This document shows positions 2,783 to 24,154 of a stretch of 64,000 nt of DNA, piece by piece. The stretch is from an uncultured Dehalococcoidaceae bacterium. GTDB lineage: Bacteria > Chloroflexota > Dehalococcoidia > Dehalococcoidales > RBG-16-60-22. Position 1 is the first letter of the stretch, and each line of letters starts with the position of its first letter. The translations under genes and the position numbers were made by a program. The stretch lies in NCBI GenBank assembly GCA_964462865.1, contig CAYWZO010000001.1, positions 17,309-81,308 of the forward strand, in the 5' to 3' direction. The notes beneath the pieces were generated by a model. It saw only the letters and a list, made by a program, of their open reading frames with translations, did no database searches and was not told where the DNA came from.

Positions 2783-4993
2783 CTATTTACTGCCCGGAGC
2801 GATATCGCCGGCGGCAGATGCCGGAGGCACGGGATGCCCGGTATCCGCCCTGGCGGCCTCGATGCCGACACGGCTCACGCTGAAAACACCCTTAACAGCG
2901 TCAATCTTCTTCAGTATCTGGCTCAACTGCGCCAGGCCTTTGGTCTCCAGGGTCATAAACATGGTGATGTTCTGGCCGTTACCGTTGGCCAGACTCACCG
3001 AGGCGATATTTACCTTCTCTTCGGCAACGACGGTAGTGACATCACGCATCAGGCCGACCCTGTCCCAGGCATCCAACTGTATCTTCACCGGGTAAAGCAG
3101 GTCGCTCTGCCCCCACTCCACCGGGATGAGGCGCTCTTTTTCGTCCTCGTTAATGATGTTGTGGCAGTCCGCGCGGTGAATGCTGACGCCGCGGCTGCGC
3201 GTGATGTAGCCGATTATTTTATCGCCGGGGACCGGGTGGCAGCACTGGGCGATGTTGGTCATCAGGTCACCGACGCCCAGCACCTGCACCCCGGAGGGCA
3301 CCTGTCTCAGCGGGGCGACCTCGGCGGCCTGTTCCTCTTCCTCTTCCTGGGCGGCCAGCTTGAGGACAATCTGGTGCGCGGTAACACTGCCGTTACCCAC
3401 CGCTACATGAAAATCATCCAGGTTGGCATAACCAAAAAGCCCGGCCAGGACCTGGCGTTCGGTCTTAATGCCCAGCCTCCGCAGTTCCTTATCCAGTATC
3501 TGCCGACCGCGCTCGATGTTCTCCGCCCGCGTCTGTTTGTTGAACCACTGCCTGATTTTAGTCATGGCGTGCGAGGTCCGGATATATCCCAGGTTGGGAT
3601 TCAGCCAGTCCAGACTGGGCGCCCGGGCCCCCTTGGACGCGATAATTTCCACGACGTCCCCGTTCTTTAACTCATAGTTAAAGGGCACCAGTTTGCCGTT
3701 GACTTTAGCGCCGATGCAGCGGTGCCCCAGGTCCGTATGGACGCGGTAGGCAAAATCGAGAGGGGTAGCGCCCCGGGGCAGGTCTTTGATTTCGCCTTTG
3801 GGGGTATAGACAAATACCTGGTCGATAAAGATATCGGTCTTGACCGACTCTAAAAATTCCTCGGCCCCGGAGAGTTCGCGGTGCCACTCGATGAGCTGGC
3901 GTAGCCAGGCAACCCTGTCTTCGAACATCATGTCCGTCTTGCTGCCTTCTTTATAGCGCCAGTGGGCCGCGACGCCGTACTCGGCGACATGATACATCTC
4001 GCGGGTGAGAATCTGGATTTCCAGCGGGGTGGTGCCGAGGCACATCACCGCCGTGTGCAGCGCCTGGTAGCCGTTCGGCTTGGGATTGGAAATATAGTCA
4101 TCGAAAGTCTCGGGTAGCGGGTGCCACAGGCTATGAATGATACCAACGGCGCTGTAGCATTCCGCCAGATTGCCGACCAGCACCCTCATCGCCAGGAGGT
4201 CATAAATCTCATCGAAGTGCTTGCCGATGGCGGCATACTTTTTCATCTTCTGGTGGATGCTGTAAATATGCTTGGGCCGGCCGGAGATATCCGCCACCAG
4301 GCCCACCTTTTCAAACTCTTTTTTCAGGAGTTCAATCGCCCGGGCGATGAACTTTTCCCGCTGGATCCGTTTGGCGTCGACCAGACTGGCGATTTGCTGG
4401 TATTCCTGCGGAAGTAAATAACGGAAGGAAAGGTCTTCAAGCTGCCATTTCAGTTCCCAGATTCCCAGCCGGTGAGCCAGCGGGGTATATATTTCCAGTG
4501 TTTCCTGGGCGATACTCAATTGCCTCTCCCGGGGCAGGGCGTCCAGGGTGCGCATGTTGTGCAGCCGGTCGGCCAATTTGATAAAGACAACACGCAGATC
4601 CTCGGCCATGGCCAGCAGCATCTTCCTCAAGTTTTCCGCCTGCGTGGCACTGGCGGCGGCGGCGGAAGACGTGAGAGCCACCTTACCAAGCTTGGTGGTA
4701 CCGTCAACCAGCCTGGCTATTTCCTGCCCGAAGCGCGTCTCAATATCGGCGATGGGCAGGCCGGTGTCTTCGGGGATATCATGGAGCAGGGCTGCCGCCA
4801 GCGTACTGGCATCAAACTGAAGTTCGGCGAGGATGTAGGCCGTTTGCAGCGGGTGTTCCAGGAATGGCTCGCCGGACAGTCGTGTCTGTCCGTGGTGTTT
4901 TTCCGAGGCGAACAGATAAGCCGCCTCCACCACCCCTATCTTCTCGGCTGGCAGATAGTTCTTTATTTTCTCCAGAAGTACATTGAATTCCAT
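2783..4993 (-). CDS. rel: Bifunctional (p)ppGpp synthetase/hydrolase (RelA/SpoT homologue)
   Basis: HD hydrolase region (HHGQTRLSGEPFLEHPL...LLHDIPED), synthetase region (HRLGIWELKWQLEDLSFRYL, GRPKHIYSIHQKM, YQALHT), and TGS and ACT-like C-terminus. I place the start at ATG 4993 (MEFNVLLEKIK), not the upstream ATG 5083. Confidence 0.92.
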   Translation of the reverse strand: MEFNVLLEKIKNYLPAEKIGVVEAAYLFASEKHHGQTRLSGEPFLEHPLQTAYILAELQFDASTLAAALLHDIPEDTGLPIADIETRFGQEIARLVDGTTKLGKVALTSSAAAASATQAENLRKMLLAMAEDLRVVFIKLADRLHNMRTLDALPRERQLSIAQETLEIYTPLAHRLGIWELKWQLEDLSFRYLLPQEYQQIASLVDAKRIQREKFIARAIELLKKEFEKVGLVADISGRPKHIYSIHQKMKKYAAIGKHFDEIYDLLAMRVLVGNLAECYSAVGIIHSLWHPLPETFDDYISNPKPNGYQALHTAVMCLGTTPLEIQILTREMYHVAEYGVAAHWRYKEGSKTDMMFEDRVAWLRQLIEWHRELSGAEEFLESVKTDIFIDQVFVYTPKGEIKDLPRGATPLDFAYRVHTDLGHRCIGAKVNGKLVPFNYELKNGDVVEIIASKGARAPSLDWLNPNLGYIRTSHAMTKIRQWFNKQTRAENIERGRQILDKELRRLGIKTERQVLAGLFGYANLDDFHVAVGNGSVTAHQIVLKLAAQEEEEEQAAEVAPLRQVPSGVQVLGVGDLMTNIAQCCHPVPGDKIIGYITRSRGVSIHRADCHNIINEDEKERLIPVEWGQSDLLYPVKIQLDAWDRVGLMRDVTTVVAEEKVNIASVSLANGNGQNITMFMTLETKGLAQLSQILKKIDAVKGVFSVSRVGIEAARADTGHPVPPASAAGDIAPGSK

Positions 4994-5217
4994 AGTTTTC
5001 CGCCCCGGGCCGGAACCCTGGAGCTCTTTTCCCCTGATTAACATAAACACTGGCAATTTCAGTATAGCCCAAAAAACGGGCACTGTAAAATACTGGCTTG
5101 GTCTTTTAATTGCATAAAATCCCCGGTTTTGATATTGTTTTCAGGGATAGATATAAAACGATAGCGACAAAGCCCAGATACGCGATGCCAATTTAACCAT
5201 CCCGGAGGCAGTATATC

Positions 5218-7911: not shown

Positions 7912-8343
7912 ATGACCGACCGTGAATTATCGACAGAAGAACTGGAAGAAGGCTCCGAACTTCACCTTGACTTCGATAAGGTATCGAAAGTAGCGGCAGA
8001 GGTCGCCGGTGTCATGCCCGCCGCCGTCCAGAACGTGGATACCAAAGAGGTCATTCTGGTTGCCTACGTGAATAAGGCAGCCTTCCAGAAAAGTATCGAG
8101 ACCGGCATCGCTACCTTCTGGAGTACTTCGCGTAACGAACTCTGGGTAAAGGGCGCTACCTCGGGTAATGCCTTTGAACTGGTCGAGGTAAGGGTCAACG
8201 ACGAGCAGAACGCACTGGTATATATCGTCCGACCGAAAGGCGAAGGTATCTGTCACACCCGTAACTCAAAAGGTCAAGCCCGCAACTGTTTTTACCGCAG
8301 GTTAAATACTGATACCGGTACGCTGGAAAACCTCGACCCCTAG
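7912..8343 (+). CDS. HisI-like protein (PR-AMP cyclohydrolase fold), divergent
   Basis: ILVAYVNKAAFQKSIETGIATFWSTSRNELWVKGATSGNAFELVEVRVNDEQNALVYIVRPKGEGICHT...NCFYR aligns to the HisI core. The usual DCDxD box reads NDEQN and KGETSGH reads KGATSGN. Confidence 0.6.
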   Translation: MTDRELSTEELEEGSELHLDFDKVSKVAAEVAGVMPAAVQNVDTKEVILVAYVNKAAFQKSIETGIATFWSTSRNELWVKGATSGNAFELVEVRVNDEQNALVYIVRPKGEGICHTRNSKGQARNCFYRRLNTDTGTLENLDP

Positions 8344-8719
8344 TTCCACGCTTTCAGGCTACGGAAGAACCTGTCCGGATTTTTACCAGAGAGCTCTATT
8401 AGCCTTCGGAGGCGACTCAGGTCATATTCTCCCTTCAACAATCCTTGATATCATCGAATCAATGATTTTGTGGGGAGGACAAAATGGTTCTATGCTAAGT
8501 ACTTATCTCTCTCAAAATATTCATTATTTATCTTTTTTTTACTTTTTTTGAACATTCTTTATCATGCATATACTATTTTCATGCTATATTGAATTTGACC
8601 GTCAGAACGAGCAGCCACGCAGCCTGGAGGAAATAACTTAATGAGATTTTCCCTTATTAAGTTAAAGTACTCTTCAGTAAAAACGGTTAAAACTTAGGTT
8701 TGGCAGATTATTAGCTAAT

Positions 8720-10735
8720 ATGGGTGAACAGAAGAAAAAAAACGTATTTCCTGAAGAGAAATTTAGCAAAATATTTGACGAATACCGTGACAGGATAGAC
8801 CAGATTGTCCGGAAATCCTCAAATAATTTCGTTGAAAACGAAACGTTAACTGTTGTTACGACTGAGGATGTCCCTGCTGAACCAGGCACAGAGGTCCGGG
8901 GGGCCCAGGAGAATACCGAAAATCAGCCCGGGATGGATAAGCAACCATCCAGAATAAAACTGCCTGATACTAAAAAATCCGCTAAGAAAATCAGCGAGAC
9001 CGAACCTAAAGCTAAAAACATCATGTTAAAACAATCAATCAACTATACGGATATCACCAGGAGAATGAATAAAAAAAGATTGGGCGACCTCCTGATAGAA
9101 AACAAGATAATTACCCAAGCCCAGTTACAAAAAGCCCTTGAAGTGCAGAGCCAGGAAAGTGGCAGGTTAGGTGAAATCCTTATCAAGCAGGGGCTTATAA
9201 AATATGATACCCTGCTGGAATTTCTTAGTAAGCAACTGGAAATACCCATAGTAAATTTACAGGGCCGCATCATCAAGCAAGAAGTGCTGGAACGGGTCCC
9301 GGAGCACATAGCCCGAGGGCGTAACATTATTCCCGTGGAAATCGTTGATGATAAATTGGCCATCGTCATGGGATATCCCGAGGACATCATCACCATCGAT
9401 GATATTCAACTGATAACGGGTATGAAAATATGTATCGCGCTGGGTAACCCGGCCGATATAGAAGCCGCCATCGATTTCAACTACGAATCAAGCCGAAAAC
9501 TAGATATGGAAATAAACGAGGCCGAGGGTACAGCGAAGGATGAAGAAGAGGAAATTCAGGACAATATCGATTTTTCGCCAGCGGCCCAGAACCTCAATAA
9601 AATAATCAATCAGGCCGTACACGATGGCGCCTCGGACATACATATAGAACCTTATAAAAAGCGGCTACGTATACGCTTACGAATCGACGGCGTATTGCAG
9701 GATAAATATTCGCTGCCGGTCTCCGCTAATGATGTCATCGTAAGCAGAATAAAAATACTTGGAAAAATGAATATCGCGGAACACAGGCGCCCGCAGGACG
9801 GTCAATTCACAATTAAGTCAGGTCATAAATATATTGATATCCGGACCGCCACCGTAGGTACGGCCAACGGGGAAAGGGCCACCCTGCGTATTCTGGATAA
9901 GTCCCTGACCCTGATTAACCTGGATAAGCTCGGCTTCTTACCCGATACCCTGGAACAGTTAAAAAATATGCTGAAAAACACCTTCGGCATGGTCCTCGTG
10001 GGCGGCCCGACCGGGTCCGGTAAGACCACCACTTTATATTCCATGATAAACAATCTGGACCGCCACGAACTCAATATCATGACCATTGAGGACCCGATTG
10101 AGTACAGTTTTACAGATATCACTCAAATGCAGGTCAATGAGAAAGCGGGTATCAATTTTTCAAGCTGTTTGAAGGCATCGTTACGCCATGACCCCGATGT
10201 CCTCCTGATAGGTGAGATACGTGACCCGGATACGGCTAAAATAGCCGTTCAGGCGGCGCTGACCGGCCACCTGGTACTTGCCTCCATCCATGCCAATGAT
10301 GTTTCCAGCATGCTTTTCCGGTTGGTTCATCTCGGCATAGAGCCATATCTAATTTCTTCAACACTTATCGGCCTGCTGGCGCAACGCCTGGTCCGCTGTG
10401 TTTGTTCCTATTGTGCTGAAGAGACGGCCCCGTCGGCGGAGGAGGTCAAAGCCTTCAAGGAACTCACGGGAGAGACACTGACCGCCGTGCATACCGGCAA
10501 AGGCTGCGGTATTTGCTCCAACACCGGCCATCACGGTCGGACGGGGATATTCGAGCTGATGGCCATGAATGACACTATCAGAAGCAAACTGATTGCCGGC
10601 GCCAGCGCCTCGGAAATCCGGCACGAGGCGATCAATCAGGGTATGGTAACGATAAGCCAGTCAGGCATGACCAAAGTCAAGCTGGGTCTATCTTCGACCA
10701 AAGACGTACTGCGTTCGATAAACGCGCTGGGATAA
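8720..10735 (+). CDS. GspE/PilB/MshE-family secretion/pilus ATPase with N-terminal MshEN domain; start codon uncertain
   Basis: Walker A GGPTGSGKTTT, Asp/His boxes (LLIGEIRD, LVLASIHAN), C-terminal Cys cluster (CSYC...GCGICSNTG), and two tandem RLGxx(L/I)(L/I)xxG(L/I)(L/I)xxxxLxxxLxxQ-type motifs. The first ~115 aa are Lys-rich and low-complexity. Alternative starts are M102 and M116 (nt 9065). Confidence 0.85.
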   Translation: MGEQKKKNVFPEEKFSKIFDEYRDRIDQIVRKSSNNFVENETLTVVTTEDVPAEPGTEVRGAQENTENQPGMDKQPSRIKLPDTKKSAKKISETEPKAKNIMLKQSINYTDITRRMNKKRLGDLLIENKIITQAQLQKALEVQSQESGRLGEILIKQGLIKYDTLLEFLSKQLEIPIVNLQGRIIKQEVLERVPEHIARGRNIIPVEIVDDKLAIVMGYPEDIITIDDIQLITGMKICIALGNPADIEAAIDFNYESSRKLDMEINEAEGTAKDEEEEIQDNIDFSPAAQNLNKIINQAVHDGASDIHIEPYKKRLRIRLRIDGVLQDKYSLPVSANDVIVSRIKILGKMNIAEHRRPQDGQFTIKSGHKYIDIRTATVGTANGERATLRILDKSLTLINLDKLGFLPDTLEQLKNMLKNTFGMVLVGGPTGSGKTTTLYSMINNLDRHELNIMTIEDPIEYSFTDITQMQVNEKAGINFSSCLKASLRHDPDVLLIGEIRDPDTAKIAVQAALTGHLVLASIHANDVSSMLFRLVHLGIEPYLISSTLIGLLAQRLVRCVCSYCAEETAPSAEEVKAFKELTGETLTAVHTGKGCGICSNTGHHGRTGIFELMAMNDTIRSKLIAGASASEIRHEAINQGMVTISQSGMTKVKLGLSSTKDVLRSINALG

Positions 10736-13169: not shown

Positions 13170-13198
13170 TTGAACTTCTTGGTTTGGCAGACTATAAT
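13170..13198 (+). promoter_or_regulatory. Sigma-70-type promoter for the response regulator/kinase operon
   Basis: TTGAAC (13170-75), a 17-nt spacer, then TATAAT (13193-98), 31 nt upstream of ATG 13229. Confidence 0.55.
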
Positions 13199-13228
13199 GG
13201 TATTGAGACTTCAGGCCGCAGCATACAA

Positions 13229-13891
13229 ATGAACAAGATAAAAGTGCTGATTGCCGACGACCATGCCCTCTTCCGCGAGGGGACACGCAGCCTCATCGAA
13301 CAGGAGAAGGACATGGAGGTGGTGGGCGAGGCCAGCGACGGGGCCGAGACCATCAAACTGGTCAGGGAGCTGCGCCCCCACGTCGTACTGATGGACATCG
13401 CCATGCCGAAGGTCAATGGCATCGAAGCTACCCGTCAGACTAAAGTTGATTACCCGGCGACGGCCGTTTTAATACTGACCGCCTATGACAACGACCAGTA
13501 CATCGTGGCTTTGCTGGAGGCGGGCGCCGCCGGATACCTGCTGAAAAACGTCAGCGGCGCCGACCTGGTCAACGCCATCCGTGCCGTATATGCCGGTGAA
13601 GCCGTACTCCACCCCACCATTGCCCAGAAAGTCTTCGGCCGCCTGGGATTGAGCAGCCGGCCATCGGCCACGTCCCAGGAAGCCGAGCTTAGCGAGCGGG
13701 AAATGGAGATACTGAAGCTGGCCGCCCGTGGGATGAGCAACCAGGACATTGCCGCCCAGCTTTACTTGAGCCGCCGCACGGTACAGGCGCACCTGGCCAA
13801 TATCTTCCGTAAAATGGACGTCGGCTCCCGGACGGAGGCTGTGTTGCAGGCCCTTAGAAAAGGCTGGCTCGTCCTGGACGACCTAGCATAA
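13229..13891 (+). CDS. NarL/LuxR-family response regulator
   Basis: Receiver domain (KVLIADDH, VVLMDIAMPKVNG, VLILTAYD, GYLLKN) plus a LuxR HTH (LSEREMEILKLAARGMSNQDIAAQLYLSRRTVQAHLANIFRKM). I place the start at ATG 13229 rather than TTG 13184. Confidence 0.9.
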   Translation: MNKIKVLIADDHALFREGTRSLIEQEKDMEVVGEASDGAETIKLVRELRPHVVLMDIAMPKVNGIEATRQTKVDYPATAVLILTAYDNDQYIVALLEAGAAGYLLKNVSGADLVNAIRAVYAGEAVLHPTIAQKVFGRLGLSSRPSATSQEAELSEREMEILKLAARGMSNQDIAAQLYLSRRTVQAHLANIFRKMDVGSRTEAVLQALRKGWLVLDDLA

Positions 13892-13896
13892 AGGCT

Positions 13897-15873
13897 ATGG
13901 CGAAGCGTAAACTCGTGAAGCGATTTTACCAAATTCCTCATTTCTGGGGCATATTGGCCATCATGTACATCGGCGCCCTTTTATACTATGCTGACCATAT
14001 TCCCTGGTACCAGACCTTCTTTCCCCGAGCGCCTATCGAGCTAGCTCAATATTCGACCTACCGCATCCTCTCCATCATCCCGGTAGCCTACGCCGCCTTC
14101 GTTTTTCGCTGGAGGGGCGGTGTGATAACTGCGGTATTTATTTTTATAGCCCTCCTGCCGCGCGCTATATTTTTTTCCACGCAGGTATACGAGGCGATAA
14201 CCGAGACCTTTGCCTTCTTTTTCATCGGCCTACTGGTGACCTGGCTGATCCACCGGCAACAGCAGGCGGTCCACCAGCTGGAAAACGCTCATCAGGAACT
14301 TAAGGCGGATATTCAGATTATCAAAGATGATGAGAAGCGGATGACGGCCTTGAATCGGATAGCGAGTACTGTAGCGGAATCTTTGGAACTAAGCACGGTC
14401 TTGAGCAATGCCATCGATAACGTCGTCGATGTGATGAAGGCGGATGTCGCCTGGATTTTTCTGCTGGATGAGGACGGCGGCGAACTTTCCCTGGAAGCCC
14501 ACCGTGGCTCGGCCGAGGAGCTGGCCCGGGGCGTGGACCGGCTCAAGCTGGGCGAGGGTTTCAACGGGCGGGTAGCCCAGTCAGGCCAGCCCCTTTTCGT
14601 CGAAGACGCCTCCCAGGACCCGCGCCTTACCCGGGAGGTGGTCAGCAAGTTCAAACTCCGTTCGACACTTATCGTCCCGGTCAGTTCCAAAAAGAAAGTC
14701 AACGGCACCATCTGCATCGCCATGTACAGCCACCGCCAGTTCCAGCCGGAGGAGGTCGAGCTTTTAACAGCCATGGGCAACCAGATCGGCGTGGCCGTGG
14801 AGAATGCCCACCTTTACCGGCAACAGCAGGTCACCACCCAGCAGTTGCGAATCTCCGAAGAGCGCTACCGCGGCCTCTTTGAAAACTCCACCGATGCCCT
14901 TTTCGTCGTCTCGACCACCGCCCGGATTATCTCGGTCAACCGGGCCTGCGAAGAACTGACCGGCTACACGCGCAAGGAACTGACGTCCACGACCATATAC
15001 AACCTGTTTTCCAGCGATACCAGGGAAAAGCTGGTGCAAATGTTCACAAGCAATCTGGACCGGTTTCCGGCAGGCGGAATCGAGGATGCGCGGCTCACCC
15101 GGAAAAACGGAACGGAAGCCTATGTCGAACTCCGTATCAGCCCCATTCTCCGGAAGGATGAGGTGCTCGGGTTGCAGGTAATCGCCCAGGACGTGACCGA
15201 GGAAAAGCAGCTACGGCGGAACATGGAGTATTATATAAAACAGGTGACCAAGGCCCAGGAAGATGAACGCCTGCGTATCTCCCGCGAGCTGCACGACGAC
15301 ACCGTCCAGGTACTGGCGACGCTATCCCGGGGTATCGATTCCTTTATTGCCGGTGAGAAAAAAAGCCCCCGGCCGACGGTAGAACAGCTGAAAAAGCTGC
15401 ACGAGATGGCCAACTCGGCCCTGGAAGGGGTACGGCGTTTTAGCCAGGACTTGAGGCCTTCCATACTGGATGACCTCGGTCTGGTGCCTGCCCTCGAGTG
15501 GCTCATTACCGACCTCGAAAAAGGATACGGTATGACTACCAAGGTCGATATCACCGGCAGCCAGCGCCGTCTTTCACCGGAAATAGAGCTCACCGTCTTC
15601 CGCATCGCCCAGGAGGTGTTCAGCAACATCAGGCGGCACTCACAGGCTTCGACAGTAGAGATGGGGCTGGACTTCAGCGCCGATGCCCTGACTCTGGTGA
15701 TCAACGATAACGGCCAAGGCTTTAATATTCCCGCGCGTACCAGCGACCTCGCTGTATCTGGAAAACTTGGCATCCTCGGCATGCGGGAAAGGGCCCGCTT
15801 GGTGGGGGGCACGCTGATAGTGCAATCGGAAAAGGATAGTGGCACCACGGTCACCTTGAGGATTCCGGCCTAG
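13897..15873 (+). CDS. Membrane sensor histidine kinase (multi-TM N-terminus, GAF, PAS, HisKA_3, HATPase)
   Basis: TM-rich first ~110 aa; GAF (ADVAWIFLLDEDGGELSLEAHRG...); PAS (EERYRGLFENSTDALFVV); H-box ERLRISRELHDDTVQVL; ATPase G-boxes. It follows its regulator gene by 5 nt. Confidence 0.88.
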   Translation: MAKRKLVKRFYQIPHFWGILAIMYIGALLYYADHIPWYQTFFPRAPIELAQYSTYRILSIIPVAYAAFVFRWRGGVITAVFIFIALLPRAIFFSTQVYEAITETFAFFFIGLLVTWLIHRQQQAVHQLENAHQELKADIQIIKDDEKRMTALNRIASTVAESLELSTVLSNAIDNVVDVMKADVAWIFLLDEDGGELSLEAHRGSAEELARGVDRLKLGEGFNGRVAQSGQPLFVEDASQDPRLTREVVSKFKLRSTLIVPVSSKKKVNGTICIAMYSHRQFQPEEVELLTAMGNQIGVAVENAHLYRQQQVTTQQLRISEERYRGLFENSTDALFVVSTTARIISVNRACEELTGYTRKELTSTTIYNLFSSDTREKLVQMFTSNLDRFPAGGIEDARLTRKNGTEAYVELRISPILRKDEVLGLQVIAQDVTEEKQLRRNMEYYIKQVTKAQEDERLRISRELHDDTVQVLATLSRGIDSFIAGEKKSPRPTVEQLKKLHEMANSALEGVRRFSQDLRPSILDDLGLVPALEWLITDLEKGYGMTTKVDITGSQRRLSPEIELTVFRIAQEVFSNIRRHSQASTVEMGLDFSADALTLVINDNGQGFNIPARTSDLAVSGKLGILGMRERARLVGGTLIVQSEKDSGTTVTLRIPA

Positions 15874-17039
15874 TCCGGCGGGGTATAAGGTTCCGGGGAT
15901 TGCGAGCCGGTATGTATCCGGAGACCGGAAACAAAGGCTGTCACCGCGACGGGGCAGAACTGGGTGCCCGAACATTCCTGCAGTTCTTCAATCGCCTGTT
16001 CAATGCTCATAGCCTGGTGGTAGGCGCGTCCGGTTGTCATGGTGTCAAAAGCATCAGCAATAGCTATCAGCCTGGCGCCCAGGGGTATCTCTTCGCCCCG
16101 AAGCCCCTCGGGATAGCCTTTGCCATCGAACCTTTCATGATGATAGAGCACAAGTTCGCTCGCTTTTTCCAGGTAGGTGATTTCCCTTAATAAATTAGCT
16201 CCTTTGGCCGGGTGCTGGCGGATTACCTCCCATTCCTCCGGCGTGAGGGCGTCTTTTTTATTCAATATACAGGAGTCAATTTCTATTTTGCCGATATCAT
16301 GCAGTATCGCCGCACTCCGTAATATTTCATTCTCGTCGGGGGAGAGGGAAAAGTAGGTCCCGGCCATGACCGTGTATTCCATCACCCTTTGAGAGTGGCC
16401 GCAGGCATACGGGTCCTTGGCATCGATGGCCGCCGCCAGCGTCGAGATGGTGTTTTTAAATGCATCCAGAATGACCTGATACTGCCGTGTATTCTCTATC
16501 GCCATGGCGGTGGTAGTGGCGACGGAAACAATGGCTTCCAGGTCATGCTCTTCGAATTCCGTATCATCCATCTTGTTGATAGCTTCAATGACGCCCAGGA
16601 TTTTATGCTGGACCATCAGCGGAGCACAGATCAGGGCTTTAGTTTGAAAACCCGTGGTATCGTCAATCATTTTATGAAATTTTTCACTGCGGGCTACATC
16701 ATTGACGATGAGGGGTTTACCCGTACGGGCTACCTGACCGGCGATGCCGTACCGCGTGGACAATTTTACCTGCCGCAGCGCTTTACCTACCGGGCCGGAG
16801 GCGACCTCAAAGAATAACTCTTCCTCATTATCCCCGAAAAGGAGGATAGAGGCCGCCGCTATATTTAGTGTCTTCTGGGACGTCTTGATGACCTGTTCCA
16901 GCATCTGGGTCATCCGCGGCGATGACCTGATTTTTTTACTGACCCCGCATACCAGTTCCAGCCCGGGTTTAGGCTCTCCCTCCACATGGGCTGGTACCGA
17001 ACCGGATAGCATTCTTTCCAGACTATATACCATATTCAA
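15870..17039 (-). CDS. GAF-domain HD-GYP phosphodiesterase
   Basis: The N-terminal GAF has ASILLFGDNEEELFFEVASG...GIAGQVARTGKPLIVNDV. The HD-GYP part has GHSQRV, ILHDIGKI and HHERFDGKGYPEGLRGEEIPLGARLIAIADAFD. The listed start is TTG 17039; ATG 17033 is an alternative. Confidence 0.88.
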   Translation of the reverse strand: MNMVYSLERMLSGSVPAHVEGEPKPGLELVCGVSKKIRSSPRMTQMLEQVIKTSQKTLNIAAASILLFGDNEEELFFEVASGPVGKALRQVKLSTRYGIAGQVARTGKPLIVNDVARSEKFHKMIDDTTGFQTKALICAPLMVQHKILGVIEAINKMDDTEFEEHDLEAIVSVATTTAMAIENTRQYQVILDAFKNTISTLAAAIDAKDPYACGHSQRVMEYTVMAGTYFSLSPDENEILRSAAILHDIGKIEIDSCILNKKDALTPEEWEVIRQHPAKGANLLREITYLEKASELVLYHHERFDGKGYPEGLRGEEIPLGARLIAIADAFDTMTTGRAYHQAMSIEQAIEELQECSGTQFCPVAVTAFVSGLRIHTGSQSPEPYTPPD

Positions 17040-17074
17040 ATACCCATAATGGTGATACTTGGTACTTTCTAGAC

Positions 17075-17899
17075 TTACACCCCCACCGTCTCGAGACTGC
17101 GGAACATCTCACGGTTTTTCTCCGTCAAACGGGAATATTCTTCATTGACCACCCAGACCAGTTCATTGTCACCTACACCAGGGATGGAAACATATTTGGG
17201 CACAAAAACCTGGCGGAATTGCGCCGGCATGTGCTCGCGAACCTGGAACCCACGGTGCGGAAAGCAAAAGGTCAAAGAACTCAAACGGGAGAGTCGCGTA
17301 GCATTGTTGATACAATGCCCGACGTATTCTTTATCATTACCGATGCCGTAGACCTTACCCCGCGCCACCCCGCATCTAAGAGTAGCCGGTGGTTTATTAA
17401 CAACCATTGAGATACGCGGGTAAAACTCCGTCCGGTAGGCACAACAGACTTTATGGAGAGTGCCGGCCAGCTGGCATATCTGCTCTTCCGTCATCTTCTG
17501 GGCGTCCCAGAGCACCAGGAGGCCATCGCCCAGAAACTTGACCATGATAGGCAGCCCTGTCCAGAGCGTACTATGGTCGCCGTAGTCTTTTTCCGTAATC
17601 CTTTTACGGATATTACTGAAAAACCACTCCAGAAAATCGTTTAGGAACTTGGGGATGACCAGATACGAGTCCACCTGGTTACAGAACGCCGTAAAGCCCG
17701 TCAGGTCAAATACGGCGGCCACGGCCTCTTTTTCCCGGCAGGGAGCATTGATATCGCCGAGCTCCAGCACCGAGGGATTGAACCTTTTAATGGTCTCGTT
17801 ATCAATCAGTTTAGAGTTATTTCCCCGGCCATCCGGCAACGAGCCCCTGGAGCCGGGAGCCCTAACCCTTCTTACGATTACCCGTCTTACTTTTCCCAT
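17075..17899 (-). CDS. Stand-alone class III nucleotidyl (adenylyl/guanylyl-type) cyclase catalytic domain
   Basis: VAAVFDLTGFTAF (metal Asp 1), MVKFLGDGLLVLW (Lys plus metal Asp 2) and RCGVARGKVYGIG...EYVGHCINNATRLSRL (Asn/Arg transition-state pair). It has an Arg-rich ~45-aa N-terminus, no sensor domain and a weak SD, so the start is uncertain. Confidence 0.7.
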   Translation of the reverse strand: MGKVRRVIVRRVRAPGSRGSLPDGRGNNSKLIDNETIKRFNPSVLELGDINAPCREKEAVAAVFDLTGFTAFCNQVDSYLVIPKFLNDFLEWFFSNIRKRITEKDYGDHSTLWTGLPIMVKFLGDGLLVLWDAQKMTEEQICQLAGTLHKVCCAYRTEFYPRISMVVNKPPATLRCGVARGKVYGIGNDKEYVGHCINNATRLSRLSSLTFCFPHRGFQVREHMPAQFRQVFVPKYVSIPGVGDNELVWVVNEEYSRLTEKNREMFRSLETVGV

Positions 17900-18054
17900 C
17901 AAACAAGCCTGTCTACCGGAGCATCGAATATCAAGCTACATAACTGATATAATGCTCTTAGAATATTTATAATCCGCCTGATGGTTATATTATTAGCAAG
18001 CAGGTAAATAAAACGTAAACATAGCTGGCGGGCGTCTAAATAATTTGTTAATAA

Positions 18055-18123
18055 CACGGCATATTGCCGTGCCGGGCCAGCCATGATAATATTAAAGATA
18101 TACGGTAAATATTTGCCGTATAT
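18055..18123. promoter_or_regulatory. Two operator-like palindromes sharing the half-site TGCCGT upstream of the atypical OmpR-type regulator
   Basis: Site 1 is cACGGCA-tat-TGCCGTg (18055-71). Site 2 is atatACGGTAaat|atTTGCCGTatat (18098-18123, 13-bp arms, one mismatch). Both lie in an AT-rich gap 35-100 nt upstream of ATG 18158. Confidence 0.5.
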
Positions 18124-18157
18124 TTCAAAAGTAAGTAAACACAACATAAGAAGAAAA

Positions 18158-18826
18158 ATGGCCAGAGCCTTAATCATTACCAGAGACGCCGATTCCAGGG
18201 AAGAGCTGCGGAAAACCTTATCCTATAATGATATTACGTTCCTTTTTATCACTTACAGCAACGGGTTCCGGCAGGAAATAACCGGTAAGCAACCCGAAGT
18301 CCTCCTCCTGGAAATGGGAGAACAGCTTCCAGGACCGGAAACCCAGGAAATTATCAGGAAGGTCAAAAAGGAGAAAAGGGTACCGGTTATCGCCCTGATT
18401 CCCAGGGAATATCTGGATAAAATGGACGCCAACCCGGACATTGATGATTTTCTGGTAACACCCTACGATGTCCAAGAGCTGGTTATAAGGATAAACAGGC
18501 TCCTCGGCAGCCGCGGCCCGGAGAGCCAGGAGCCCATCCAGGGCCAGGGACTGACCATCGACCCGGACACCTGCGAGGTGACAGTAGACGGCAGCAAAGT
18601 GGAACTTACCTTTAAAGAATATGAATTGCTCAAACTGCTGGCGAGCCACAAAGGGCGCGTCTTTACCCGGGAGGTCCTGCTCGATAAAATCTGGGGCTAT
18701 GACTATTACGGCGGCGACCGCACCGTCGATGTACACATCCGCCGGTTAAGGAGCAAAATCGAACAGAACCGCGGCTACATCGAGACGGTGCGCAATATCG
18801 GCTACCGCTTCGTTAAAGACTCTTAG
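18158..18826 (+). CDS. OmpR/PhoB-family regulator with a degenerate (pseudo-)receiver domain
   Basis: The winged-helix C-terminus is intact (LTFKEYELLKLLASHKGRVFTREVLLDKIWGYDYYGGDRTVDVHIRRLRSKIE...IETVRNIGYRF). Receiver key residues are replaced: LLLEMGE (Asp to Glu), ALIP (Thr/Ser to Ile) and LVTPY (Lys to Thr). Confidence 0.85.
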   Translation: MARALIITRDADSREELRKTLSYNDITFLFITYSNGFRQEITGKQPEVLLLEMGEQLPGPETQEIIRKVKKEKRVPVIALIPREYLDKMDANPDIDDFLVTPYDVQELVIRINRLLGSRGPESQEPIQGQGLTIDPDTCEVTVDGSKVELTFKEYELLKLLASHKGRVFTREVLLDKIWGYDYYGGDRTVDVHIRRLRSKIEQNRGYIETVRNIGYRFVKDS

Positions 18827-18990
18827 AAACGTTCCCGGTGATACTTCCTCACTGCCGGTAAAGAACAGGCAATCCCCGTTCTAATATAACCAACTCGCCC
18901 CTGACGACTACAAACAAAAGGCACCTGTCTGCGTCTTTCTTACTGACTTTGTAACATGATTGTAATATAACAAGGTTAAAGTATAAGTAA

Positions 18991-19506
<516 letters not shown>

Positions 19507-19606
19507 AAAACACGGGGGAAGATATATGGAATAAGGCGCGCCGCTAAGAAAATTAATGACAAAAGGCTGAATAACATCTATAATAACAATATTACAGGAG
19601 AGGGAA

Positions 19607-20953
19607 ATGGCAAATAAAAGAAGCAAAGAGGAAGCTAAGGAATACATACTCAAGATGGCTAAAGAACATGACGTCAAGTTTATCTGGCTCTGGTTTACCG
19701 ATATCCTGGGCATACTGAAGAGCTTCGCCATCACGGTGGAGGAACTGGAAGGGGCGATGGAAGAAGGGATGGGCTTCGACGGCTCCTCAATCGAGGGATT
19801 TGCGCGCATTGACGAGAGCGACATGGTGGCCATGCCCGACCCGGACACCTGGCAGCTGCTGCCCTGGACACCGCCCGAGCACCGTGCCACCGCCCGTATG
19901 TTCTGCAACATCTTGAGGCCCGGCGGCGAACCTTTCGAGGGCGACCCCAGGTATATCCTGAAAAAGAACCTGAAAAGGGCCGCCGACCTAGGTTATACGT
20001 ATTACGTGGGACCGGAGCTGGAATATTTCTATTTCAAAGATGCCCAAGGCACCGAATTCCTGGACCGGGGAGGGTACTTCGACCTGACGACGCGTGATGC
20101 TGCCATCGAGCTAAGGAGGGATACCGTACTACAGCTGGAAAAAATGGGCATAGGCTGCGAATACTCCCACCATGAGGTCGCCGATAGCCAGCATGAAATC
20201 GATATGCGCTACACCGATGCCCTCACCATGGCGGACAACGTGATGACCTACCGCCTGGTGGTCAAAGAGGTTGCCCTGAAAAACGGGGTTTACGCCACTT
20301 TCATGCCCAAGCCGGTCTTCGGCATCAACGGCAGCGGCATGCATGTCCACCAGTCGCTTTTCAGAGGCGAAAAGAACGCCTTTTTCGATGCCAAAGACTC
20401 CTATCATCTCTCCAAGGATGCCCGGGGCTACATCGCCGGCCTGCTCAAACACGCCCCGGAGATAACTGCCGTCTGCAACCAGTGGGTCAATTCCTACAAG
20501 AGGCTGGTGCCGGGTTATGAGGCGCCGGTCTACCTTTCCTGGGCGCGGCGTAACCGCTCCGACCTCGTCCGCGTGCCGGAATACCGGCCGGGCCGCGAGA
20601 AAGCCACCCGTATCGAGTTCCGGAGCCCGGACCCTGCCTGCAATCCCTACCTTTGCTTCAGCGTCATGCTGGCGGCGGGTCTGGAGGGAATCGAAAAGGG
20701 GTATAAAGAGCCGGACCCCATCGAAGAGAACGTCTACGAAATGAGCGATGAAGAGCGGAAGGAACGGGGTATCGGTACGTTGCCCGGCAGCCTGATGGAA
20801 GCCATCCGGCTGACGGAAAACAGCGAGGTAGTTAAAAAAACCCTGGGCGACCACATCTTTTATTCTTTCATCGATAACAAAAAACAGGAATGGGACAATT
20901 ACCGTACCCACGTAACCGAGTACGAGCTCGAACGCTACCTGCCGATTTTATAA
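19607..20953 (+). CDS. glnA: Glutamine synthetase type I
   Basis: 448 aa; FDGSSIEGF, GPELEYFYF, HHEVADSQHEIDMRY, NGSGMHVHQS, NSYKRLVPGYEAP and RIEFRSPDPACNPYL. Confidence 0.93.
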   Translation: MANKRSKEEAKEYILKMAKEHDVKFIWLWFTDILGILKSFAITVEELEGAMEEGMGFDGSSIEGFARIDESDMVAMPDPDTWQLLPWTPPEHRATARMFCNILRPGGEPFEGDPRYILKKNLKRAADLGYTYYVGPELEYFYFKDAQGTEFLDRGGYFDLTTRDAAIELRRDTVLQLEKMGIGCEYSHHEVADSQHEIDMRYTDALTMADNVMTYRLVVKEVALKNGVYATFMPKPVFGINGSGMHVHQSLFRGEKNAFFDAKDSYHLSKDARGYIAGLLKHAPEITAVCNQWVNSYKRLVPGYEAPVYLSWARRNRSDLVRVPEYRPGREKATRIEFRSPDPACNPYLCFSVMLAAGLEGIEKGYKEPDPIEENVYEMSDEERKERGIGTLPGSLMEAIRLTENSEVVKKTLGDHIFYSFIDNKKQEWDNYRTHVTEYELERYLPIL

Positions 20954-23853: not shown

Positions 23854-23988
23854 AATAAAAAACCAGAAGCTGAAAAGGGACGGCTTCCGGTCTTAACTTC
23901 ACTTCCCTACGCTCGCATTACCGAGTTCAGGTTCAAAGGGTGTGTCCCGATAAAATCGGGGCTCTCAGCCTTCCAGCTCCCCTAGTGG
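23854..23988 (-). promoter_or_regulatory. TPP (THI-box) riboswitch with terminator expression platform
   Basis: The minus strand reads CCACUAGGGGAGCUGGAAGGCUGAGAGCCCCGAUUUUAUCGGGACACACCCUUUGAACCUGAACUCGGUAAUGCGAGCGUAGGGAAGUG. It contains the CUGAGA, ACCUGA and GGUAAUGC..GCGUAGGGAA consensus blocks. It is followed by the hairpin ACCGGAAGC...GCUUCUGGU plus UUUUUUAUU (23854-23891). Confidence 0.88.
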
Positions 23989-24154
23989 CAATATTCAGTT
24001 TGACTATATTCTAGCCCATCGGCAGCCCGGGTTTCAAGTTACCCGTACCCGCGGCCGTTTTCAACACCTTTGACCGCCGGCTAGCCTGCGGCTTATAATT
24101 CACCTCGGAGTGAGGTAAGTCTTTGACGCCAAAACATCGCCGGGGGTCCGACAC

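Follow-up and report, generated by a model that had tools for sequence, protein, structure and literature searches.

A conserved operon pairing a divergent class III cyclase with a GAF-HD-GYP phosphodiesterase in uncultured Dehalococcoidales

Control of cyclic di-GMP (c-di-GMP) turnover by cyclic AMP (cAMP) through GAF domains has been described for a small number of bacterial enzymes. In the cyanobacterial GAF-HD-GYP protein Tlr0485, reported in 2020 and represented here by texts that cite it (PMC8846402, PMC10124867, 10.1101/2021.11.05.467447), cAMP activates c-di-GMP hydrolysis. Lcd1 of Leptospira interrogans is reported to be a GAF-GGDEF protein and a cAMP-activated diguanylate cyclase, for which a structure of the GAF domain with cAMP (5W10) has been solved, and Bd1971 is reported as another cAMP-controlled c-di-GMP enzyme. 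PmGH from Persephonella marina (4MCW/4MDZ) is a GAF-HD-GYP c-di-GMP phosphodiesterase with a trinuclear iron centre, and the paper that describes it leaves the ligand of its GAF domain unknown and mentions no partner cyclase (PMC4159591). Here, we describe a gene pair with related components in a stretch of 64,000 nucleotides (nt; hereafter the window) from an uncultured Dehalococcoidaceae bacterium (assembly GCA_964462865.1, contig CAYWZO010000001.1, positions 17,309 to 81,308 of the forward strand). The pair comprises a gene for a stand-alone, divergent class III cyclase of predicted adenylyl type (17075-17902, minus strand) and, after an intercistronic spacer of 35 nt (17040-17074, minus), a gene for a GAF-HD-GYP phosphodiesterase of the PmGH family (15870-17039, minus).

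We propose, at a probability of roughly 55%, that in this two-gene operon cAMP made by the cyclase switches on c-di-GMP breakdown by the GAF-HD-GYP protein. A cAMP-activated GAF-HD-GYP mechanism is already known in kind and is not new; an initial annotation of the window knew of no characterisation of this specific gene pair, but Tlr0485 and Lcd1 are published precedents for the mechanism, and the second protein belongs to the named PmGH family. With regard to Tlr0485, the GAF and HD-GYP architecture is shared, as is the proposed logic in which cAMP on the GAF domain leads to c-di-GMP hydrolysis, whereas the texts that cite Tlr0485 indicate no dedicated co-transcribed cyclase; the window protein carries an RxxH motif at the guanine contact. 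With regard to Lcd1, cAMP likewise controls c-di-GMP metabolism, but its GGDEF output makes c-di-GMP whereas HD-GYP domains degrade it, so that the sign of the crosstalk is opposite. The novelty lies in an operon dedicated to this pair, in the divergence of the cyclase lineage and in the conserved operator, which together make a clean and testable module rather than a surprise; our literature searches found no description of a dedicated co-transcribed minimal cyclase, of a class III lineage invisible to domain models, or of a lineage-wide operator in such a system.

The cyclase and its assignment to class III

Both minus-strand open reading frames (ORFs), the gap between them and the motifs that the initial annotation had quoted are present at the positions given above. 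The cyclase ORF counts 275 aa from a TTG start; the ATG that follows directly, at 17899, is the likelier start because the resulting MGKVRR... N-terminus fits the MGKVRR or MKR starts of homologs. The downstream ORF encodes 389 aa and has an alternative ATG at 17033.

The cyclase protein has no Pfam or NCBIfam match (PF00211 gave none even at E 10), a phmmer search of the Protein Data Bank (PDB) with it returned nothing usable, and the PADLOC model PycC matched it below threshold (E 0.028, 11.5 bits). Its homologs form a tight family of stand-alone proteins of ~270 aa, nearly all from metagenome bins of Dehalococcoidales or other Chloroflexota; they carry no precomputed Pfam domain, JGI labels many of them "class 3 adenylate cyclase", and NCBI records label them hypothetical. 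A family profile built from 37 members (alignment A1) found no canonical cyclase in the PDB with HMMER, and against 1.84 billion representative proteins it retrieved 393 relatives, again with no canonical cyclase among them; at the sequence level, the lineage is thus small and isolated (~390 clusters at 50% identity). When the 37 members were tested one by one, 7 matched PF00211 weakly (best E 2.3e-4) and 14 matched PycC weakly (best E 5e-4). The family is therefore a class III outlier, about equally far from PF00211 and PycC, that is assigned by fold and residues and not by a curated model.

Because standard domain models gave nothing usable, a structure model, Foldseek and hhalign were needed to place the protein. 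An AlphaFold (AF2) model computed on the family alignment reached a pLDDT of 76 and a pTM of 0.72, with core blocks at 80-93 and residues 1-32 disordered. Its top Foldseek match was Spirulina platensis CyaC (1wc5; E 1.3e-9, template-modelling (TM) score 0.65-0.70 on the target), followed by guanylyl cyclase Cya2, Rv1625c, CyaB and soluble guanylate cyclase (overall E 1e-9 to 1e-7) and, at lower TM score, by the Pycsar-type uridylate cyclase 8jsz. An hhalign comparison of the family profile with the catalytic domain of Mycobacterium tuberculosis Rv1625c (the sequence used is 100% identical to PDB 4p2m_A) gave E 1.7e-4 over 130 columns and placed all six catalytic residues: D66 and D126 align with the metal-binding D256 and D300 of Rv1625c, K122 and E192 with the substrate residues K296 and D365, and N199 and R203 with the transition-state residues N372 and R376. 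D66 lies in the motif FDLTGFT, K122 and D126 in VKFLGDG, and N199 and R203 in CINNATRL, within a catalytic domain spanning approximately residues 56-252 (nt 17147-17737) and with the K-x3-D and N-x3-R spacing of canonical class III cyclases. Among 93 family representatives obtained by clustering at 50%, D66 is kept in 91, D126 in 91, K122 in 92, N199 in 92 and R203 in 88, and the position of E192 is acidic in 92 (Asp in 90, Glu in 2). The class III call made in the initial annotation is upheld by these residues, which are conserved family-wide, and by the Foldseek matches (E ~1e-9).

In class III enzymes, a Lys and Asp pair specifies ATP, and Glu and Cys specify GTP. The Lys/acidic pair of the window protein predicts ATP as substrate and hence an adenylyl cyclase, and we read the protein as a cyclase that most likely acts as a homodimer and is competent for catalysis. 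Compared with canonical class III cyclases (PF00211; Rv1625c, S. platensis CyaC), the predicted fold, the six catalytic residues and their spacing are the same, whereas the window family falls below Pfam and NCBIfam detection, has no sensor or membrane domain, and has its own motifs (FTxFCNQVD and GHCINN), a Cys triad and an N-terminal segment of its own. That segment (F41...G49) is conserved and precedes the catalytic domain; the initial annotation had described the protein as a catalytic domain plus an Arg-rich leader only, and while the leader (residues 1-14) is indeed there, the description missed this segment. The leader is present only in the clade that is paired with GAF-HD-GYP genes. 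A search for N-terminal sensor domains in longer family members found none, apart from one fusion to an AbiTii domain and one likely gene-fusion artefact. The AbiTii fusion, in the distant representative P0210 (405 aa), joins an N-terminal abortive infection domain (E 3.9e-15) to the cyclase; it is the sole hint that some far relatives may have a defence context.

The failure of every curated cyclase model to match, together with the confinement of the Arg-rich leader to the GAF-HD-GYP-paired clade, could also be read to mean that the cyclase-like protein is inactive and instead regulates the GAF-HD-GYP protein as its partner, the leader being one conceivable means. Six catalytic residues that are all kept, and near-invariant across 93 divergent representatives, would be hard to explain without catalysis, and we regard such a pseudo-enzyme as very improbable.

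A further feature of the family is a triad of cysteines, C74 (in 72 of the 93 representatives), C177 (83) and C197 (84), of which the first follows the metal loop, the second stands beside R176 and the third lies two residues before N199; the GAF-HD-GYP-paired clade additionally has C55, C143 and H196. The Dehalococcoidales, the host lineage, are strict anaerobes. It is conceivable, if quite doubtful, that these cysteines make up a site for a metal or for redox chemistry by which cAMP synthesis would be gated, i.e., a hidden sensor that would give the operon a redox or metal input besides its TGTTTA operator (described below), both converging on c-di-GMP clearance.

The GAF-HD-GYP protein and the use of c-di-GMP

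For the second protein, the initial annotation was right: Pfam detects HD_5 (E 3e-39), HD (E 4e-20) and GAF (E 7e-17), with the GAF domain at approximately residues 43-183 (nt 16491-16913) and the HD-GYP domain at approximately residues 201-361 (nt 15957-16439), and the HHERFDGKGYP signature is intact. In a sequence search of the PDB, residues 22-371 align with full-length PmGH (4mcw, E 8e-53), and the HD-GYP half also matches the cyclic GMP-AMP (cGAMP) phosphodiesterase V-cGAP3 (5z7c). Mapping of the active site through the 4mcw alignment onto the residue list of the PmGH paper (PMC4159591) showed that seven of the eight metal ligands are kept (H215, H247, D248, H276, H300, H301 and D329, for PmGH H189, H221, D222, H250, H276, H277 and D305), as are the catalytic D183 and K225 of PmGH, the GYP residues (G308-Y309-P310) and R314 (R338 in the window protein).

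The GAF domain has Lcd1 GAF 5W10, in its cAMP-bound form, as its closest solved relative (E 3e-25; 168 aa aligned with a single gap, 32% identical and 58% similar), and the next-best solved matches are the GAF domains of PDE5, PDE2, PDE10, CyaB2 and PDE6. As a control, the GAF domain of the neighbouring histidine kinase was compared with the same PDB set and reached only ~1e-11 there; this domain is generic in type, its best PDB match being 3e0y (E 6e-13). The likeness of the operon-encoded GAF domain to GAF domains that bind cyclic nucleoside monophosphates (cNMPs) is thus real, and it suggests, without proving, the ligand. Within the protein, conservation among orthologs is highest around the GAF pocket. 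The idea put forward in the initial annotation, that a mononucleotide gates hydrolysis of a dinucleotide, gains support from Lcd1 being the closest solved relative, as far as sequence comparison goes.

The window also encodes a PilB/MshE-type secretion ATPase of 671 aa (8720-10735, plus strand; T2SSE E 2e-116, MshEN E 2e-11), in which residues 120-172 hold a tandem 24-residue MshEN c-di-GMP-binding motif with a 5-residue spacer. Of the two copies, motif II fits perfectly, and in motif I a Lys takes the place of the turn glycine. Because the window encodes this MshEN-motif ATPase, the genome probably uses c-di-GMP. The ATPase has a long N-terminal extension, lies inside a low-GC stretch (GC 0.445 over 8001-10000) and is not syntenic with the operon in related loci; 46%-identical homologs in two of these loci (L053, L054) directly adjoin distant members of the cyclase family. 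A literature search for Dehalococcoidia together with c-di-GMP, cAMP or GGDEF found nothing specific.

Conservation of the pairing, genomic context and the upstream repeat element

A scan for related loci, restricted to one genome per species, yielded 64 loci, among which 47 with a cyclase at least 52% identical form a close set. A GAF-HD-GYP ortholog lies immediately downstream of the cyclase gene, and co-oriented with it, in 45 of these 47 loci; of the two exceptions, one locus is cut short where its contig stops, and in the other the GAF-HD-GYP gene has been lost. The intercistronic spacer is mostly 30-40 nt (36 orthologous loci), and the same arrangement recurs on two additional metagenome contigs. 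The pairing is thus far beyond chance, and conserved synteny, which the initial annotation had named as a check on the gene pair, is borne out. Distant cyclase-family members (36-48% identity), which include sequences from Spirochaetota, Bacteroidota, Verrucomicrobiota, Kiritimatiellia and Lentisphaerae, have no GAF-HD-GYP partner. As the partner is restricted to the close clade, we regard the operon as clade-specific and vertically inherited.

The distant members adjoin other types of genes, which are themselves conserved and co-oriented upstream neighbours, and a universal partner for the whole cyclase family was accordingly rejected. In the PVC group (L060-L064), the co-oriented upstream partner is a hydrolase of the metallo-beta-lactamase (MBL) fold (Lactamase_B_2). 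In L053 and L054, a KaiC-like ATPase lies upstream and T2SSE and T2SSF lie downstream. In a Dehalococcoidia subgroup (L048-L052 and L055), the upstream gene encodes a coiled-coil protein rich in Ala, Glu and Lys, which carries a membrane anchor at its C-terminus, has a conserved N-terminus (KPLPEILDEME) and gives no Pfam match.

The context of the operon is core genome: NadE, GlnA, (PII and Amt) and an OmpR-like regulator stand divergent from it, and genes for a LuxR-type response regulator and a membrane GAF-PAS-HisKA_3 histidine kinase (together 13184-15873, plus strand) converge on it, the stops of the kinase and the GAF-HD-GYP gene overlapping by 4 nt. The LuxR-type regulator and the kinase adjoin the operon in many related loci. 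Searches with tblastn of phage (50,697 records) and plasmid (72,556 records) collections found no relatives.

These observations bear on the resemblance, raised in the initial annotation, to Pycsar-type anti-phage systems, in which case infection would trigger synthesis of a cyclic (pyrimidine) nucleotide and the GAF-HD-GYP protein would act as effector. The layout, a minimal class III-like cyclase beside a putative cyclic-nucleotide sensor protein, is indeed similar, and the weak PycC profile likeness, the presence of uridylate cyclase 8jsz among the Foldseek matches and the AbiTii fusion of P0210 point the same way. By contrast, the pair is vertically conserved, in one order and in the same core neighbourhood (glnA, nadE and the two-component system), in 45 of 47 loci rather than mobile, and relatives in phages and plasmids were not found. 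The putative effector is a hydrolase with no transmembrane (TM), TIR or other toxic module, for which PADLOC gave no effector match and only a generic HD likeness to Cas3; the Lys/Asp pair is of the purine (adenine) type; and the operon has a conserved transcriptional operator of its own. We rejected the defence reading on the core-genome context, the degrading rather than toxic effector and the lack of phage or plasmid relatives, and consider it extremely improbable.

That operator lies upstream of the cyclase gene (18005-18053, minus strand) and was recognised in aligned upstream regions as four direct hexamer repeats. In the window, the element reads TATTAA-N5-TATTTAGAC-N10-TATGTTTAC-N4-TATTTA, or by hexamers TATTAA-N5-TATTTA(GAC)-N15-TGTTTA-N5-TATTTA, with boxes starting at 18053, 18042, 18021 and 18010; the resulting spacing of 11, 21 and 11 bp puts all boxes on one face of the DNA. 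The element stands 103-151 nt upstream of the cyclase ATG, with a -10-like TAATAT/TATAAC 12-15 nt downstream of the last box, and in many loci the proximal box lies ~17 nt upstream of a TAtTAa-like -10, in place of a -35 region. Of 44 usable sequences (the window and 43 loci), 34 carry a three-box form of the element ahead of the cyclase gene. The strict pair T[GA]TTTA-N5-T[GA]TTTA occurs 38 times on both strands of ~750 kb, 36 of these occurrences being directly upstream of, and on the same strand as, a cyclase gene; none was found in loci L048-L064, which have no GAF-HD-GYP partner. Within the window, the pair has 3 matches where 0.25 would be expected, and 2 of the 3 fall at 18005-18053.

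The element has, by its sequence, the form of an OmpR/PhoB-family operator, and its proximal pair, TGTTTA-N5-TRTTTA, is built like the PhoP box, (T/G)GTTTA-5nt-(T/G)GTTTA (PMC3335776), the classic direct repeat of that family, hexamer direct repeats and 11-bp periodicity being shared with PhoP and GlnR boxes. The four sites on one DNA face, with the proximal box at the -35 position, recall the site of GlnR, an orphan regulator of which four protomers occupy four direct sites (PMC10235972); the GlnR a-b sites differ in their even 11-bp spacing, compared with 21 bp between the inner boxes here, and the present host belongs to the Chloroflexota. Because this direct-repeat element is conserved upstream of the operon, the input to the operon is probably transcriptional, and the terms "self-contained" and "sensor-less" used in the initial annotation need to be qualified. 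A sigma-70 scan found no minus-strand promoter for the operon, which would fit an activator-dependent promoter although the result is uninformative, and a terminator scan found no terminator-like site for it on the minus strand. An ORF of 92 aa directly upstream of the cyclase start (17899-18177, minus) has no domain match, overlies the AT-rich divergent promoter and the repeat element, and is probably not a gene. Riboswitch control of the operon was rejected, as an Rfam search of 15700-18400, even at E 1, found no riboswitch or other RNA element.

A plausible candidate for binding the repeats is encoded by the divergent gene: a GlnR-like, atypical OmpR-family regulator (18083-18826, plus strand, likely start 18158) with a clear Trans_reg_C domain (Pfam E 7.5e-29) and a degenerate receiver domain (E 0.16), in which, by our reading of the sequence, the phospho-acceptor Asp appears to be replaced by Glu (LLLEMG). 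Its best solved relatives are the actinobacterial GlnR structures 8hig/8hih/8hml (E 2e-31), it heads an amt-glnB-glnA-nadE cluster, and it may be a nitrogen regulator of the GlnR kind in Chloroflexota. The gene is adjacent and divergent in ~12 related loci. The protein remains a candidate because the boxes persist where no GlnR-like gene is adjacent and because the amt promoter resembles the boxes only weakly. The strict TGTTTA pair was not found in the amt and glnA promoters of the sampled loci, where we saw only a weak, reverse-oriented resemblance, and we do not claim a TGTTTA regulon shared with amt and glnA.

Three side observations concern the neighbourhood. Between the GlnR-like regulator and glnA, the window holds only fragments of amt and glnB (18826-19607, plus): an ORF at 19010-19390 begins like an ammonium transporter and another at 19186-19506 ends like a PII protein, whereas a relative (L065) has intact Amt (410 aa) and PII (112 aa) in the same slot, so that the remnants look like the result of a ~1-kb deletion leaving a pseudogene, or of misassembly. 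The sole riboswitch in the window is a thiamine pyrophosphate (TPP) element far from the operon (23887-23993, minus; Rfam RF00059, bit score 63.9, gathering score 54.3). Finally, a full-length RelA/SpoT-type (p)ppGpp synthetase/hydrolase (2783-5140, minus; HD_4, RelA_SpoT, TGS, ACT) is the third nucleotide second-messenger enzyme in the window.

The proposed relay and its meaning

The analysis shows how the genes are built, the fold, which residues are conserved, the synteny and the cis-element, and from these a four-step scheme can be drawn. In a first step, suggested by the cis-element, an OmpR/PhoB-family winged-helix regulator, possibly the divergent GlnR-like protein, would bind the direct TGTTTA repeats that replace the -35 region of the promoter and switch the operon on. 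The cyclase would then, judging from fold and residues, form a homodimer with two complete active sites and convert ATP to cAMP. By homology and precedent, cAMP would bind the GAF domain at the N-terminus of the GAF-HD-GYP protein expressed along with the cyclase, a PmGH-like dimer that would be held together by the GAF domain and a long helix, and this binding would allosterically activate the HD-GYP metal centre. The activated centre would finally hydrolyse c-di-GMP, or possibly 3'3'-cGAMP, and so lower the dinucleotide signal.

Several points weigh against this scheme. The cyclase product, the GAF ligand, the HD-GYP substrate, the sign of regulation and the identity of the regulator are parts of it that we infer. 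As to the product, PycC is as weak a match to family members as PF00211 is, and a pyrimidine product would be compatible with this. As to the ligand, the PDB is skewed towards cNMP-binding GAF domains and a generic GAF domain matches them too, which makes a ligand call by similarity only suggestive. As to the substrate, two residues depart from PmGH: E185, the third-iron ligand, is replaced by Tyr211, as in V-cGAP3, which suggests a binuclear site, and K317 corresponds to His341, giving the guanine-contact motif R338-x-x-H341 (RxxH) in the window protein where most orthologs have Arg. Rxx(K/R) marks HD-GYP domains of the c-di-GMP type and Rxx(Q/N) those of the cGAMP type (10.1101/600031); the c-di-GMP-type RxxR is found in 30 of 37 orthologs, and Rxx(Q/N) is never the majority state. 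A search for GGDEF motifs in the window and ~730 kb of related loci found none that was convincing, a result that covers a single neighbourhood and is not informative for the whole genome. With regard to regulation, there are loci that keep the repeats although no GlnR-like gene adjoins them. Co-transcription of maker and receiver, moreover, leaves unexplained how the cyclase itself would be modulated.

Some of the same evidence would fit a closed loop, in which the HD-GYP domain hydrolyses the cNMP made by the cyclase itself and the GAF domain provides product-activated feedback as in the mammalian enzymes PDE2, PDE5 and PDE10, so that self-limiting pulses would reach receptors elsewhere; on this alternative reading, the HD-GYP domain would be the first cyclic-mononucleotide phosphodiesterase of its class. 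The tight coupling of a maker and a phosphodiesterase in one operon, the resemblance of the GAF domain to the regulatory GAF domains of those cNMP phosphodiesterases, the departure of RxxH from guanine-binding Rxx(K/R), the lack of a GGDEF gene in the neighbourhood searched and the pairing of PVC-group relatives of the cyclase with another type of hydrolase could all be accommodated in this way. To our knowledge, however, hydrolysis of cyclic mononucleotides has not been reported for any HD-GYP enzyme. The substrates of characterised members are c-di-GMP, pGpG or 3'3'-cGAMP (PMC4159591, 10.1101/600031), most orthologs keep the c-di-GMP-type RxxR, the match to the c-di-GMP phosphodiesterase PmGH is full-length, and the window encodes an MshEN-type c-di-GMP receptor; we consider the closed loop distinctly unlikely.

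The two proteins might also be co-expressed without direct coupling, as members of a shared regulon only, with the GAF domain sensing something else (for instance 2-oxoglutarate or glutamine as signals of nitrogen status, nitrate, or redox state) and the cyclase product acting elsewhere. GAF domains bind many ligands, and which one the GAF domain of PmGH binds is unknown; the operon adjoins amt-glnB-glnA-nadE and a GlnR-like regulator in many loci; NCBIfam indicates a weak likeness of the GAF domain to those of NifA, PtsP and NreA; and the matching of a generic GAF domain to cNMP-type GAF domains in the PDB applies here as well. Set against this, the Lcd1 GAF match is ~14 orders of magnitude stronger than that of the control GAF domain, adjacency to the cyclase gene is near-universal in the clade, the NifA and PtsP matches fall far below the family cut-offs, and the amt and glnA promoters of the sampled loci lack the strict TGTTTA pair. 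On balance, we regard co-expression without coupling as unlikely and prefer the relay from cAMP to c-di-GMP hydrolysis.

For the lineage concerned, such a relay would matter in several respects. The known crosstalk from cAMP to c-di-GMP through GAF domains consists of a few biochemically studied enzymes for which the source of cAMP and the physiological reason are unclear, whereas here maker and receiver are hard-wired in one operon across uncultured Dehalococcoidales of peat, fen and sediment, an environmentally important lineage. With only two proteins and one operator, the system is compact enough for reconstitution in vitro or in a heterologous host. As this class III lineage is missed by standard annotation, cyclic-nucleotide signalling in metagenome-assembled genomes of Chloroflexota is probably under-counted. 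Finally, the operon lies beside a GlnR-like regulator and genes of nitrogen assimilation, a position that hints at a possible connection of nitrogen status with second-messenger control in these bacteria.

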